Assembly: GCF_003334385.1 (NCBI RefSeq) | Contig: NZ_QOWN01000011.1 | Length of the DNA: 64,000 bases | Reading direction: 5' to 3' (one strand) | Origin: Escherichia coli | GTDB taxonomy: Bacteria > Pseudomonadota > Gammaproteobacteria > Enterobacterales > Enterobacteriaceae | Shown here: positions 984 through 39,726 of the stretch, one piece after another | How the letters are laid out: each line of letters opens with the position of its first letter | How positions within the stretch are numbered: position 1 is the first letter of the stretch | Notes under the pieces: generated by a model | Database searches by the model: none | The model's input: only the letters and a program-made list of their open reading frames with translations | What the model was told of the DNA's origin: nothing | Made by a program: the position numbers and the translations under genes

Positions 984-1511
984 GTGAAAACCGCCCTGCT
1001 GCTGGAAAAACTGGAAGGACAGCTCGCTACGCTGCGTCAGCGTTGTGCCCCGGTGTCACAGTTCGCCACGCTAAGTGCTCGTTTCGACAGGCATCTTTTT
1101 CAGACTCGTGCGACAACACTACAGGCTTGTCTCGACGAGGCGGGCGATAATCTGGCTGCGCTTCGTCATGCAGTTGAGCAGCAACAGCTGCCGCAAGTGG
1201 CCTGGCTGGCGGAACATCTGGCGGCACAACTGGAAGCCATCGCGCGTGAAGCCTCCGCCTGGTCATTGCGCGAGTGGGACAGTGCACCACCGAAAATTGC
1301 CCGCTGGCAGCGTAAACGTATTCAGCATCAGGATTTTGAGCGGCGGCTACGTGAGATGGTTGCCGAACGCAGAGCCCGTCTGGCGCGGGTGACCGATCTC
1401 GTGGAACAGCAAACGCTGCATCGTGAAGTGGAAGCCTATGAAGCGCGCCTGGCACGCTGCCGCCATGCGCTGGAAAAAATCGAAAACAGGTTAGCGCGTT
1501 TAACCCGCTAG
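984..1511 (+). CDS. priC: primosomal replication protein N'' (PriC)
   Basis: 175-aa [30 protein letters not shown]... with GTG start at 984; matches E. coli PriC. Confidence 0.93.
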
Positions 1512-1524
1512 CAATGGAGAGAAT

Positions 1525-1686
1525 ATGTCACTGGAAAATGCCCCTGACGATGTCAAACTGGCTGTCGATTTGATTGTGCTGCTGGAGGAAAATCAGATCC
1601 CTGCCAGTACCGTGCTGCGCGCGCTGGATATTGTAAAGCGTGATTATGAAAAGAAATTAACGCGCGATGATGAGGCGGAAAAGTGA
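1525..1686 (+). CDS. ybaM: small protein YbaM (DUF2496), 53 aa
   Basis: ATG at 1525, TGA at 1684-1686; hand translation [53 protein letters not shown]; below the 60-aa cutoff of the ORF track; sits 14 nt after the priC stop as in E. coli. Confidence 0.85.
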
Positions 1687-1739
1687 GAAATAAATGGGGT
1701 CGCTAAATGTCCCCTAAGGTTGCGGGCAAACGCAAAACT

Positions 1740-1848
1740 GCCTGATGCGCTACGCTTATCAGGCCTACACCGCTCCTGCAATATATTGAATTCTTGCGGT
1801 TTCGTAGGCCGGATAAGGCGGTCACGCCGCATCCGGCATGAACAACGC
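1740..1848. repeat. BIME: two inverted REP palindromic units
   Basis: gcctgatgcgctacgcttatcaggcctac (1740-1768) and gtaggccggataaggcggtcacgccgcatccggca (1804-1848) between convergent ybaM and mscK; classic REP consensus. Confidence 0.85.
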
Positions 1849-1867
1849 GCACTTTGTTAGCAATCTC

Positions 1868-1899
1868 GGGGCAACTAAATGTTGCCCCCTTTCGTTTTT
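1868..1899 (+). terminator. putative intrinsic terminator for priC-ybaM
   Basis: hairpin ggggcaac-taaat-gttgcccc followed by ctttcgttttt; T-run overlaps the mscK stop codon on the other strand. Confidence 0.5.
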
Positions 1900-4800
1900 A
1901 CCCTACCGCTGGCGTCGGGTCATCGCCTTTGTAGTCGCGTTTTACTTCCGTCACCTCATCGCCCTTCTCGTTGTGCAGATGCACTTCAAGCTGGTTAAAG
2001 GCAATGTTGATGTCGTTTTCACGGCACAGCTGATCGATAGTACGGTTCAGCTCATCGACAGTACGACTACGGTCACGCAGTTCACGCACATACAGACGCA
2101 GCTCATGATCCAACGTGCTGGCACCAAATGCCGTAAAGAAGACTTCCGGCATTGGTTCGTGCATCACCCTTGGGTGCTCAGTCGCCGCCTTCAGTAACAC
2201 TTTACGCACTTTTTCCAGATCGGAGCCATAGGCCACGCCGAGACGGATCACCAGACGCGTAGTAGTGTCAGTCAACGACCAGTTGATCAGACGCTCGGTA
2301 ACAAACGCTTTGTTCGGGATGATCACTTCTTTGCGATCGAAATCGGTAATCGTTGTCGCACGAATACGGATCTTACTTACCGTCCCCGAGAAGCTACCAA
2401 TGGTTACCGTATCGCCAATACGCACCGGACGTTCGAATAGAATGATCAAACCGGAGACGAAGTTACCGAAAATTTCTTGTAAACCAAAACCAAGACCTAC
2501 GGATAATGCTGCGGCCAGCCACTGGAGTTTATCCCAAGAGACGCCCAGCGATCCGAACACCGTCATCGCACCAACAGCAATAATGATGTAGTTAAGGATG
2601 GTAGTAATGGCATACGACGCGCCCTGGCGCATATTCAGTCGCGAGAGCACCAGCACTTCCAGTAAACCAGGCAGGTTGCGAATCAACGCCCAGGCCACCA
2701 TTGAGGCGATAATCGCAAACAACAGACTGCCCATGGTGACGTTTTTCACCACCGCAGCGCCAGCTTCAGTGCCGTTGTAATGCCAGAGCGTGATGCTGTC
2801 GAGATAGCTGAACACGGTGATCAAATCGGACCAAATTGCCCAGAACATGACACCGAACAGCGCAAACATCAGCAACATGGTAATACGCAGCGTCTGCTGG
2901 TTAACTTGCTCCAGTGCAATGGTGGGTTCTTCCGGCGGTTCAGCACCTTCTGCGCCCTCTTTCACCAGATTCTGCCGACGCGCCAGCGCACGACGCCAGG
3001 CGATACGCCGCGCCGCTACGCTTAAGCCACGCAGTACCGTCTGGTACAGCAGGTTCCAGATGATCACCAGATAAACGGTTTCAATCCAGCGTCCTGCCAG
3101 ACGCAGCGTAGTGTAGAAGTAGCCTGTAGCAGTCAGCACCATCAGCGCAATCGGGATTATCGACAGCACGGTAATGGTGACCAGTCGCATGGTGTGCGAC
3201 TCTTTATCACGCCAGCTTTCGCGGCACATCGGCCATACCAGGAAGGCAATCAGCAGCAGGTTGAAGAAAATCATCGCTTGCCCCAGCACATCATCCATCA
3301 GATGCAGCGGGGAAAGTTCTGCCACCACAGACCAGAAATGGATAGGCAGCAATGCGAGACTGATGCGGACAATTTGCCGACGCCAGTGGCTGGTCTGCTG
3401 TTCCGGCATGCCGAAGTGACGTACGGCAACGCCGTTTTTCTCCAGTACCTTCCAGCACAGGCCAAACACCAGCCAGAATATCGCCAGTTTTTTGCTGAAC
3501 GACCATAGCAGTTCGCTGATGTTGAGCTGCATGGTCAACAGAATCAGGCCAACCGCGAGAATAATCAGGCACACCGGCAGCGCACGGATCAGGTCGATAA
3601 GGATCGCTTTTGGTGTGTTGAGCTGGCTGTCGTTACGCAGGGAACCCACAGCGGAAGCCAGTTTTTGTTGATACGCTTTCAGCCAGCCCAGACGCCAGTG
3701 GATCAGCCCGGCAATCAACAGCAGCGGCAAACCAGCGAGGAAAGCGATAAAAACGGCGGGCCAGGCTTTTTGCCAGTTCACCGTGATTTTCATCGACTTA
3801 AATTCATCTTTCAGGCTTTGCGGGAACGCTTTGATCCAGTCCCAGTCCATTGGACGGTTACTGTTCACCCAAAAGATTTGCTGAGTCAGGATGGATTTCA
3901 GGTTTTTCGACACACTCATTAACTGCTGCTGGTTGATTTGCAGGTTAATGGCCATCATCAGCTGGTTACCCAACTGTTTGTTGAGTTGATCCAGCAATTC
4001 GCGACGCATATCAACCACTTGCAATAACGCATCGTGAACTTCGCTGTTGACTTCGTTGGTGTGACCTTCTTCCAGTTTGTTGACGAACGCATCGCTCTGG
4101 AAGAGTGCATCACGCTGCTGGTTAACTTCAAACTGTTCGAGACGCAAATCCGCGATGCGGTTGGTCATGTTTTCCAGTTCATCCGCCGAGGGCAGCGTTT
4201 GTTGTTGCTGGTAAAGGATACGAGACAACAGCAGGCTGCCCTTCAGGACGGCAATCTGCTCTTTAATATTGCGTTCCGATTGCAGCGCCCGCTCCAGCCA
4301 GTTTTTGACTTTAATGTTTTGCTGCATCAACTGATTACCGTTTTCAGTCGCGGTAATCAGACGCTGACTTAACTGCTGGTTAATTTCCAGTTCCTGCTTC
4401 ACCAGCGGATTAGCCTGAATACGCGCGGCTTCATCCGGGGAGACGGCTTCCTGCGCCGTTTTTTCGGTTAAAGTCAGGCGCTTGCTGTTTACCGCTTCTT
4501 GCAACAGTTGTAACTGGTGCTCCAGACGAGCGCTGTTCGCCGTCACGTAATCACGTTGCTTTTGCAAGGTATCCTGCAAGACGGTGTTCCCTTCCAGGCT
4601 TTTACGCTGCTGGTCAATCTCCGCATTCAGCAACGCCTGCTGGGCCTGCATTAACACTTTCTGGCTGGGACGTAAGGCTGTCTCGCCGACATCAGTCCCA
4701 TCCAGACGACTGCGAATTTGTTGCAGCTGCTGCGAAGCGTTATACATCGCATTTTGCACGCGTTCGGGCTGCGTCTGTAACGAAACCAGCTGGCTGTTAT

Positions 4801-5260
4801 AAGACGCCAGATCGTTTTGTGCGTTTTGCAAATCGTCCAGCGCCTGGGCAACGCGAGTTTCCAGCTGGCGCAACGACAGCGTGCTCAGAATTTTGCGCGT
4901 TTCTTCGTCGTTATCGACATCGCTAAGTGCTGTTAACGCCGCGGTCGCCTGGCGCATTTTTTCCGGCGCTTCAGCGACTTTTTGCCGTAGCTGAACTGTC
5001 TCTTCTTTTATGCGATCGATTTTATCGAGGGTGGCTAATGTATCTGTCAGATCCTGCTGCACCAGTTTGTCCTGAGCAGAAAGATCTTTTTGTTTATTTA
5101 GTGAGTCAAGTTGCGCCTGCAGGTCCGCTTTTGTCGGCAGATCACCATTCGATGACGCCCGCGCAAACGCCGTGTTCTGGCATAACAAGACAAAAACAAA
5201 AGCAATAAATGCTGAAAAAACAAAATGCCGTGATCGTTTGTAATACTGGAACATAGTCAT
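1898..5260 (-). CDS. mscK: potassium-dependent mechanosensitive channel MscK (KefA)
   Basis: 1120-aa ORF MTMFQYYKRSRHFVFSAFIAFVFVLL...; length and sequence match E. coli MscK; N-terminal coiled-coil region and C-terminal MscS-like domain. Confidence 0.95.
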   Translation of the reverse strand: MTMFQYYKRSRHFVFSAFIAFVFVLLCQNTAFARASSNGDLPTKADLQAQLDSLNKQKDLSAQDKLVQQDLTDTLATLDKIDRIKEETVQLRQKVAEAPEKMRQATAALTALSDVDNDEETRKILSTLSLRQLETRVAQALDDLQNAQNDLASYNSQLVSLQTQPERVQNAMYNASQQLQQIRSRLDGTDVGETALRPSQKVLMQAQQALLNAEIDQQRKSLEGNTVLQDTLQKQRDYVTANSARLEHQLQLLQEAVNSKRLTLTEKTAQEAVSPDEAARIQANPLVKQELEINQQLSQRLITATENGNQLMQQNIKVKNWLERALQSERNIKEQIAVLKGSLLLSRILYQQQQTLPSADELENMTNRIADLRLEQFEVNQQRDALFQSDAFVNKLEEGHTNEVNSEVHDALLQVVDMRRELLDQLNKQLGNQLMMAINLQINQQQLMSVSKNLKSILTQQIFWVNSNRPMDWDWIKAFPQSLKDEFKSMKITVNWQKAWPAVFIAFLAGLPLLLIAGLIHWRLGWLKAYQQKLASAVGSLRNDSQLNTPKAILIDLIRALPVCLIILAVGLILLTMQLNISELLWSFSKKLAIFWLVFGLCWKVLEKNGVAVRHFGMPEQQTSHWRRQIVRISLALLPIHFWSVVAELSPLHLMDDVLGQAMIFFNLLLIAFLVWPMCRESWRDKESHTMRLVTITVLSIIPIALMVLTATGYFYTTLRLAGRWIETVYLVIIWNLLYQTVLRGLSVAARRIAWRRALARRQNLVKEGAEGAEPPEEPTIALEQVNQQTLRITMLLMFALFGVMFWAIWSDLITVFSYLDSITLWHYNGTEAGAAVVKNVTMGSLLFAIIASMVAWALIRNLPGLLEVLVLSRLNMRQGASYAITTILNYIIIAVGAMTVFGSLGVSWDKLQWLAAALSVGLGFGLQEIFGNFVSGLIILFERPVRIGDTVTIGSFSGTVSKIRIRATTITDFDRKEVIIPNKAFVTERLINWSLTDTTTRLVIRLGVAYGSDLEKVRKVLLKAATEHPRVMHEPMPEVFFTAFGASTLDHELRLYVRELRDRSRTVDELNRTIDQLCRENDINIAFNQLEVHLHNEKGDEVTEVKRDYKGDDPTPAVG

Positions 5261-38250: not shown

Positions 38251-39726
38251 ATGTCCAGTCAATATTTACGTATTTTTCAACAGCCGCGTTCAGCCATATT
38301 GCTGATCCTGGGTTTTGCTTCCGGGCTACCGCTCGCCCTGACATCCGGTACCTTACAGGCCTGGATGACGGTCGAGAATATTGATCTCAAAACCATTGGT
38401 TTCTTCTCTCTGGTAGGCCAGGCTTACGTTTTTAAATTCCTCTGGTCACCGCTGATGGACCGCTACACGCCTCCATTTTTTGGGCGGCGACGCGGTTGGC
38501 TGCTCGCCACGCAAATCCTGTTATTAGTCGCCATTGCGGCGATGGGTTTTCTCGAACCAGGCACCCAACTCCGCTGGATGGCGGCGCTGGCGGTGGTGAT
38601 CGCTTTTTGCTCTGCCTCCCAGGATATTGTCTTCGATGCGTGGAAAACCGATGTGCTCCCGGCAGAAGAACGTGGTGCGGGCGCGGCAATCAGCGTTCTG
38701 GGTTACCGTTTAGGGATGCTGGTTTCCGGCGGCCTAGCCCTGTGGCTGGCAGATAAATGGCTGGGCTGGCAGGGCATGTACTGGTTGATGGCGGCGCTGT
38801 TGATCCCCTGTATTATCGCGACGTTGCTTGCACCAGAACCGACCGACACCATTCCTGTGCCAAAAACGCTGGAACAAGCGGTTGTTGCACCTCTGCGAGA
38901 TTTCTTTGGTCGCAATAATGCCTGGCTTATTTTGCTTCTTATCGTGCTGTATAAGCTGGGCGACGCATTCGCCATGAGCCTGACAACCACGTTTTTGATT
39001 CGCGGCGTCGGGTTTGATGCGGGTGAAGTAGGCGTGGTTAACAAAACGCTTGGCTTACTAGCGACCATTGTTGGCGCATTGTACGGTGGGATTTTGATGC
39101 AGCGCCTGTCACTGTTCCGGGCACTGCTGATTTTCGGCATTTTACAAGGTGCGTCTAACGCCGGTTACTGGCTGCTGTCGATTACTGATAAGCATCTCTA
39201 CAGCATGGGCGCAGCCGTCTTTTTCGAAAACCTCTGTGGCGGGATGGGCACATCAGCCTTTGTCGCGCTGTTAATGACGCTATGTAATAAGTCATTTTCC
39301 GCTACTCAATTTGCCCTGCTCTCAGCGCTTTCTGCTGTAGGGCGAGTTTATGTCGGCCCCGTGGCGGGTTGGTTTGTTGAAGCACACGGCTGGTCGACAT
39401 TCTATCTATTCTCCGTCGCCGCTGCCGTACCAGGGCTTATTTTGCTGCTGGTTTGCCGCCAGACGCTTGAATATACACGAGTAAATGACAACTTTATCTC
39501 CCGTACCGCATATCCGGCAGGTTATGCCTTTGCCATGTGGACACTGGCGGCGGGCGTCAGCCTGTTGGCCGTGTGGTTACTGCTATTGACGATGGACGCG
39601 CTGGATTTGACGCACTTCTCTTTCCTGCCTGCTCTGCTGGAAGTCGGGGTTTTAGTCGCCCTTTCTGGCGTCGTGCTTGGTGGTTTGCTGGATTATCTGG
39701 CGCTACGAAAAACGCATCTGACGTAA
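38251..39726 (+). CDS. ampG: muropeptide (anhydromuropeptide) permease AmpG, MFS
   Basis: 491-aa ORF MSSQYLRIFQQPRSAILLILGFASGLPLALTSGTLQAWMTVENIDLKTIGFF...; matches E. coli AmpG. Confidence 0.95.
   Translation: MSSQYLRIFQQPRSAILLILGFASGLPLALTSGTLQAWMTVENIDLKTIGFFSLVGQAYVFKFLWSPLMDRYTPPFFGRRRGWLLATQILLLVAIAAMGFLEPGTQLRWMAALAVVIAFCSASQDIVFDAWKTDVLPAEERGAGAAISVLGYRLGMLVSGGLALWLADKWLGWQGMYWLMAALLIPCIIATLLAPEPTDTIPVPKTLEQAVVAPLRDFFGRNNAWLILLLIVLYKLGDAFAMSLTTTFLIRGVGFDAGEVGVVNKTLGLLATIVGALYGGILMQRLSLFRALLIFGILQGASNAGYWLLSITDKHLYSMGAAVFFENLCGGMGTSAFVALLMTLCNKSFSATQFALLSALSAVGRVYVGPVAGWFVEAHGWSTFYLFSVAAAVPGLILLLVCRQTLEYTRVNDNFISRTAYPAGYAFAMWTLAAGVSLLAVWLLLLTMDALDLTHFSFLPALLEVGVLVALSGVVLGGLLDYLALRKTHLT

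Follow-up and report, generated by a model that had tools for sequence, protein, structure and literature searches.

rsmS (ybaM), a short gene downstream of priC in Escherichia coli: coding evidence, operon context and a proposed connection to CsrA

Directly past priC in Escherichia coli, a standard list of open reading frames passes over a frame of 53 sense codons, which raises the question of whether it is a gene and, if it is, what its product does. We have analyzed the frame in the context of the window, i.e. the whole 64-kb stretch of DNA under study. The frame runs from an ATG at 1525-1527 to a TGA at 1684-1686, as read from the sequence and from a list of ORFs of at least 30 aa, and its translation equals the peptide that had been given in the initial annotation. 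The distance to priC, reported there as 14 nt, is in fact 13 nt; it is the A of the ATG that forms the 14th base past priC. The plausible ribosome-binding site that had been pointed out is present (Table 1), and the frame was indeed hidden, since the default threshold of the ORF list is 60 aa.

Taken alone, an open frame of this length is unremarkable. Stop codons make up 3.7% of the six-frame codons in the window, so that a run of 53 codons stays open with a probability of about 0.14, and ORFs of 50-59 aa number 81 in the window. What lifts rsmS above chance is its codon usage, a Shine-Dalgarno sequence that is conserved in position, and purifying selection across genera. It is virtually certain that 1525..1686 is a real and conserved protein-coding gene, rsmS.

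A conserved gene below the length threshold

The window is collinear with positions 427,796-491,795 of the MG1655 chromosome (NC_000913.3), in reverse complement and with 24 mismatches, and the segment 900-1950 has 100% matches in many complete E. coli genomes. The DNA is of the K-12 type, but it is not MG1655 itself. Eleven of the 24 mismatches cluster within about 480 bp of ampG (window 38382-38862), which points to either a strain-specific allele or a small patch of recombination. In NC_000913.3 exactly the frame under study is annotated as ybaM (b0466, NP_414999.1, 'DUF2496 domain-containing protein YbaM'). The name ybaM used in the initial annotation was therefore right; missing from it were the renaming to rsmS ('pleiotropic regulatory protein RsmS' in the present RefSeq/PGAP nomenclature) and the published regulatory role. 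The product matches the NCBIfam equivalog NF008266 with 93.2 bits at a cut-off of 76 (residues 1-45 of 46 model positions) and the Pfam family PF10689, DUF2496, with an E-value of 8.5e-24 (residues 2-44). With its 53 aa it lies within the size range of the family (about 50-70 aa), and it carries the family motif AP..(V/I)(K/Q)LAVDLI.LLE ... AL.IV..D. The gene had been known and annotated before, and the observation that started this analysis was correct but ordinary.

The gene is well conserved. It is present once in 5425 of the 5426 complete E. coli genomes, annotated as rsmS every time, and no break in the frame is seen in Salmonella, Citrobacter, Klebsiella or a metagenomic contig of the Moritella type. 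The initial annotation had named loss of the frame in related genomes as what would speak against a gene; the frame proved to be kept, with dN/dS ratios of 0.04-0.28 (Nei-Gojobori method, codons 1-46, each genus against the window). More specifically, the ratio was 0.09 for Salmonella, with 2, 4 and 23 differences at the three codon positions, 0.04 for Citrobacter (5, 2 and 24) and 0.28 for Klebsiella (6, 5 and 20). The frame is under strong purifying selection across genera and third-position changes dominate. Moreover, the two shifted sense frames contain 2-6 stops in every species compared. In codon usage, rsmS with 0.51-0.52 bits per codon ranks first among all window ORFs of 40-59 aa, of which there are 189; read in any of its five remaining frames, this DNA gives between -0.36 and +0.27 bits per codon and contains stops.

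A HMMER search of 1.84 billion cluster representatives (E up to 1e-3) yielded 181 RsmS clusters at 50% identity, and the family can be recognised down to an identity of about 36-45% with the invariant residues kept. In all 150 matches listed the similarity stops near residue 46. An alignment of 78 diverse homologues has five invariant residues, A13, L20, E21, A33 and D40, all of which are present in the E. coli protein, and a further set that is near-invariant (at least 90%): L3, A6, L12, V14, D15, L16, I17, L34 and V37. Residue 28 is variable family-wide. It is Ser in the K-12-type protein of the window (AGT, 1606-1608), Arg in the five other E. coli alleles sampled as well as in Salmonella and Citrobacter, and Gln in Klebsiella.

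The initial annotation had also warned that other genes of fewer than 60 codons could be hidden in the window in the same way, and had proposed a rescan with a lower length limit. The rescan covered ORFs of 15-59 aa, taking the longest start per ORF, and was directed at intergenic ORFs, with conservation assessed for rsmS alone. It yielded 91 ORFs outside annotated genes, seven of them preceded by a Shine-Dalgarno-like 4-mer, and among these seven a strong coding signal was found in rsmS only: its codon-usage log-likelihood was 29.9 bits versus 4.4 bits for the runner-up. The latter, at 50273..50365 on the minus strand, has 30 aa, a GTG start and AAGG upstream, and is probably a chance ORF. 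The warning did not come true, as in the K-12 reference rsmS is the sole annotated CDS of fewer than 60 aa over the 64 kb; the 60-aa threshold concealed exactly one gene. The locus can thus serve as a calibration case, a true gene under the threshold that was picked out by eye, and one in which codon usage, a conserved Shine-Dalgarno sequence, dN/dS and synteny cleanly separate the gene from some 80 chance ORFs of the same size.

Operon context and the variable 3' end

Table 1. Coordinates of the features at the priC-rsmS-mscK locus (window numbering)
Feature	Position	Strand	Basis
priC (primosomal replication protein N''), GTG start, TAG at 1509-1511	984..1511	+	ORF list, RefSeq
Shine-Dalgarno region GGAGAGAA in the 13-nt priC-rsmS spacer	1516..1523	+	sequence
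rsmS (ybaM, b0466) CDS	1525..1686	+	sequence, ORF list, RefSeq, NF008266, PF10689, dN/dS
Conserved core, codons 1-46	1525..1662	+	alignment, AlphaFold2, extent of family matches
Variable acidic C-terminal tail RDDEAEK, residues 47-53	1663..1683	+	outside family models
Weak hairpin GGGGTCGCTAAATGTCCCC	1696-1714		sequence
Two REP-like palindromic units, BIME-like	1740-1769 and 1804-1839 (span 1740..1839)	.	sequence
Terminator-like hairpin GGGGCAACTAAATGTTGCCCC (1868-1888) followed by CTTTCGTTTT	1868..1897	+	consensus scan, pattern match
mscK, convergent neighbour outside the operon	1898..5260	-	ORF list, RefSeq

The position of rsmS next to priC is also conserved. In Salmonella, Citrobacter, Klebsiella and Moritella, as in the window, priC lies directly upstream on the same strand, and for a homologue of only 36% identity priC is found two genes upstream in the same direction. 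One 2-kb metagenomic contig carries an rsmS homologue (locus L014, 161-340) that overlaps by 4 nt with the start of hemC, the gene for porphobilinogen deaminase, and a 49-aa fragment upstream of it does not resemble the Moritella-type PriC; the linkage to priC may be absent in this case. When E. coli is compared with the Moritella-type contig (locus L013, 1818-2665), the identity is about 57-62% for RsmS and only 29% over 59 residues for PriC; RsmS is far more constrained than its operon partner. Over the seven loci compared, the linkage agrees with a published survey.

The two genes have been described as an operon by Monson et al. (2019, PMC6418279), and priC-ybaM is listed as such in a review on replication restart (PMC5778457). 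In Pectobacterium a polar transposon in priC was complemented by rsmS, plasmid-borne priC being ineffective, and no promoter was seen within 250 bp of rsmS; complementation of an E. coli ybaM mutant required the priC promoter (all PMC6418279). According to these reports rsmS, the second gene of the operon, is transcribed from the promoter upstream of priC. A simple promoter scan of the plus strand between 500 and 2000 found no promoter, that of priC itself included, so that the scan is silent on an internal rsmS promoter and the ends of the transcript are placed by inference.

The product would be translated from its own Shine-Dalgarno sequence just past the priC stop. The GGAG core of this element (1516-1519) lies 5 nt ahead of the ATG, and GGAG is found at equal spacing in the O157-type E. 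coli, Salmonella and Citrobacter; the corresponding element reads GAGGAAG in Klebsiella and AAGGA at the Moritella-type locus. The 13-nt spacer and the position of the Shine-Dalgarno sequence directly past the stop make translational coupling plausible, and translation of rsmS is probably coupled to that of priC. Where the priC stop meets the rsmS start, the predicted RNA fold does not exceed shuffled sequences in stability (z = 0.39) and leaves the Shine-Dalgarno sequence unpaired, and we therefore propose no structured regulatory element at this site. A terminator-like hairpin with a T run was also seen on the minus strand within the 3' end of priC (1485-1509); as the region gave two terminator-like matches versus 2.4 in shuffled sequence, this hairpin is likely due to chance.

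Downstream of rsmS the sequence is far from constant. In the window, a spacer of 211 nt separates the stop codons of rsmS and mscK, and the terminator-like hairpin that abuts the mscK stop codon is, as a pattern match, the likely 3' end of the priC-rsmS transcript. The spacer contains the two REP-like units: a 1051-nt query that spans them had a median of 19 matching places per E. coli genome, and Rfam gave a sub-threshold match to the REP-derived naRNA4 at 1807-1843. Within the rsmS CDS no Rfam family was found, the only hits being such sub-threshold REP-related matches downstream. An antisense ORF of 62 aa (1644..1832, minus strand) was dismissed by inspection, as it consists largely of the REP units.

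Within E. coli the 3' end of rsmS is dimorphic (window 1660-1897; locus L003, 846-925). The K-12-type allele, found in 4056 of the 5426 genomes, encodes 53 aa ending in ...TRDDEAEK and is followed by the REP-bearing spacer. The O157-type allele (1365 genomes) encodes 54 aa ending in ...QSDEASQSE (...KKLQSDEASQSE), lacks the REP-like units and has a spacer of 38 nt to mscK with a single, bidirectional terminator-like hairpin. The two diverge right past codon 45, at the limit of the family models. In its tail the O157 type resembles Salmonella and Citrobacter, ...SQ(S/T)(E/D), with E. albertii in between, and the K-12 tail therefore appears to be the derived state. We considered whether the K-12 tail could be the product of the REP-bearing insertion, and rejected this after aligning the DNA and comparing the tail of E. 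albertii, TRDDEAQSENKWGR, which is intermediate: the tails of the K-12 and O157 types are diverged homologues that differ by a 3-nt indel.

Two similar hairpins, GGGGTCGCTAAATGTCCCC and GGGGCAACTAAATGTTGCCCC, stand on either side of the REP pair, as though the origin of the REP-bearing segment had duplicated or split an ancestral bidirectional terminator. Citrobacter has an insert of about 1 kb between rsmS and mscK (locus L011, 2738-3661), which encodes a protein of the Rpn/Transposase_31 family, and in Salmonella the spacer is of similar size (about 1 kb; locus L010, 2669-3702) with no gene called. The rsmS-mscK spacer thus appears to be an insertion hotspot, filled by REPs in E. coli and by a gene in Citrobacter.

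The protein and its probable place in the Csr/Rsm network

RsmS is a protein of 6.0 kDa with a net charge of -5. That the peptide would be acidic and rich in helix had been anticipated, and this agrees with its composition (13 D+E versus 8 K+R, pI 4.46) and with the predicted structure. AlphaFold2, run on the 78-sequence alignment, gave a two-helix hairpin (helices 8-22 and 27-52) with a mean pLDDT of 93.2. The first helix bears the motif KLAVDLIxLLE and is followed by a turn and by a second helix with the motif vLxALxIVxxD. The C-terminal tail varies in sequence and length among genera and even inside E. coli. RsmS is thus predicted to be an acidic cytoplasmic protein with a hairpin fold and an acidic tail that is disordered and evolves fast. 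The core of the hairpin would consist of the conserved hydrophobic residues, which leaves the conserved D15, E21 and D40 as a candidate functional surface. A search of the PDB sequences with RsmS (E up to 1) and a Foldseek search of the predicted structure against the PDB gave no match, and neither did Pfam besides DUF2496. No PADLOC or PHROGs family matched RsmS, and nothing points to an origin in defence systems or phages.

A relation between RsmS and the Csr/Rsm pathway has been established by genetics in Pectobacterium and Serratia. In P. atrosepticum and P. carotovorum, rsmS mutations partly suppress the loss of the decoy RNA RsmB, and rsmS single mutants, which are hypervirulent, make an excess of the RsmA-repressed exoenzymes and of the quorum-sensing signal; over-expression of rsmS acts in the same direction as its loss, again raising the RsmA-repressed outputs (PMC6418279). 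In Serratia, RsmA targets, among them three CRISPR-Cas systems, are de-repressed in rsmS mutants, rsmA is epistatic to rsmS, and rsmS is independent of rsmB and pigX (PMC8450108). The E. coli side, as far as it is relayed in PMC6418279, is limited to a fitness defect of a ybaM mutant under cell-envelope stress as the sole phenotype. The same report relays that the half-life of the ybaM mRNA is altered in a csrA mutant, that the priC-ybaM mRNA is halved in a csrD mutant, and that a putative contact between YbaM and CsrA came from a single E. coli yeast two-hybrid hit, which PMC6418279 describes as unvalidated. The searchable literature contains no biochemical demonstration of an RsmS-CsrA complex.

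The core of E. coli YbaM is 73% identical to that of RsmS from Pectobacterium fontis (residues 1-45), which makes it reasonable to carry the function over to E. coli. On basis of the Pectobacterium and Serratia genetics and the E. coli yeast two-hybrid hit, we propose that RsmS would act on the post-transcriptional regulator CsrA (RsmA) independently of the decoy RNA CsrB/RsmB. It would do so through a direct and dose-sensitive protein-protein contact that tunes the engagement of CsrA with its mRNA targets, improving it relative to the decoy RNA. Both the helper direction of the effect and its validity in E. coli are what we infer from these data. It is likely that in E. coli, as in the other genera, RsmS works by way of the Csr/Rsm pathway; that it does so by binding CsrA directly is about as probable as not. 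The account as a whole (gene identity, operon and CsrA-related mode of action), when weighted towards identity and pathway, is in our view highly probable. Two observations sit less easily with it: the over-production result in Pectobacterium is covered by a simple helper model only with an added argument on stoichiometry, and the strict and ancient linkage to priC finds no explanation in a Csr function.

Three other readings have to be weighed against this proposal. The idea that the frame arose by chance, or that the region functions at the RNA level (for example as a 3' UTR or a CsrA-binding RNA) instead of through a protein, draws on the length statistics given earlier and on the GGA of the Shine-Dalgarno sequence, which in principle could be bound by CsrA. 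The substitutions are concentrated at third codon positions, however, a pattern that for practical purposes excludes a non-coding role of 1525..1686, and neither a significant RNA structure around the start nor an Rfam family in the CDS was found. A chance frame would also have to account for a protein family with invariant residues, for the best codon-usage score of its size class and for the stops in all alternative frames, and we see next to no room for either variant. RsmS could also work mainly with PriC in replication restart, or otherwise outside Csr, the Rsm phenotypes being indirect effects of stress. The priC-rsmS adjacency kept from Enterobacterales to Moritella would suit such a role, as would the strong constraint on RsmS relative to PriC, and the authors of PMC6418279 allow for 'an undiscovered pathway'. 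Yet rsmS alone complements where plasmid-borne priC does not (PMC6418279), and the synthetic lethality of priC with dnaA-ts is complemented by priC alone (PMC539235). Considering in addition the epistasis of rsmA over rsmS in Serratia (PMC8450108), the CsrA yeast two-hybrid hit as relayed in PMC6418279 and the metagenomic homologue beside hemC that has no recognisable priC fragment upstream, a role centred on PriC is very improbable.

The last reading keeps RsmS within the pathway and reverses its sign, making it a net antagonist or destabiliser of CsrA that occludes the basic RNA-binding surface in the manner of FliW or CesT, or targets CsrA for turnover. The acidic nature of the protein and the conserved acidic residues D15, E21 and D40 in its core would suit binding to a basic surface; over-expression of rsmS raises the RsmA-repressed enzymes even in an rsmB mutant, and an effect on RsmA stability is named as an alternative by the authors themselves (PMC6418279). 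However, deletion of rsmS raises the same outputs and partly suppresses the loss of RsmB, which is the opposite of what an antagonist should give (PMC6418279), and the Serratia rsmS mutant resembles a state of reduced RsmA activity (PMC8450108). RsmS moreover lacks any resemblance to FliW or CesT in sequence or fold. We consider net antagonism unlikely and retain the proposal that RsmS supports CsrA.

If this proposal is taken one step further, RsmS might represent a new class of positive CsrA cofactor, in which the hairpin binds to the CsrA dimer and makes it more selective for mRNA leaders as opposed to CsrB/RsmB. The obligatory co-expression with PriC would then tie the output of the Csr regulon to replication restart or to the stress state of the cell, and the acidic tail alleles of the K-12 and O157 types could tune the RsmS-CsrA interaction between lineages. 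This extension is tentative, and we lean towards doubting it. What can be said plainly is that rsmS/ybaM has already been assigned to the Csr/Rsm network, that the way it works there is poorly understood, and that on how it modulates CsrA and why it is tied to priC the window adds nothing beyond the published record.

Comparison with known systems

The closest counterpart is RsmS (ECA1172) of P. atrosepticum and P. carotovorum (Monson et al. 2019, PMC6418279), which belongs to the same families (PF10689, NF008266) and the same size class, and for which E. coli ybaM was named as the homologue in that study. In both cases priC is the immediate upstream neighbour, with the same orientation, and the gene has its own Shine-Dalgarno sequence. 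They differ in the priC-rsmS spacer, which is 13 nt in the window versus 37 bp in P. atrosepticum, in their C-terminal tails, which are unrelated, and in the region downstream, where the REP elements and the convergent mscK are specific to Escherichia. Campa et al. (2021, PMC8450108) likewise regarded the RsmS of Serratia sp. ATCC 39006 as homologous to E. coli YbaM, and on genetic grounds it acts upstream of RsmA and does not depend on RsmB or PigX (CsrD). The 'direct protein interaction' mentioned in that report goes back, via Monson et al., to the E. coli yeast two-hybrid hit.

Protein partners of CsrA are known from other bacteria. FliW of Bacillus, Campylobacter and Helicobacter and CesT of EPEC/EHEC are such partners (PMC5864733, PMC7829508 and PMC7652899). 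By analogy, RsmS may modulate CsrA in the same general way, through protein contact instead of through a decoy RNA, although neither its sequence nor its fold is related to FliW or to T3SS chaperones of the CesT type. The direction of the effect would differ as well: FliW and CesT are antagonists of CsrA, whereas the genetics of RsmS suggest that, at normal dose, it supports CsrA/RsmA.
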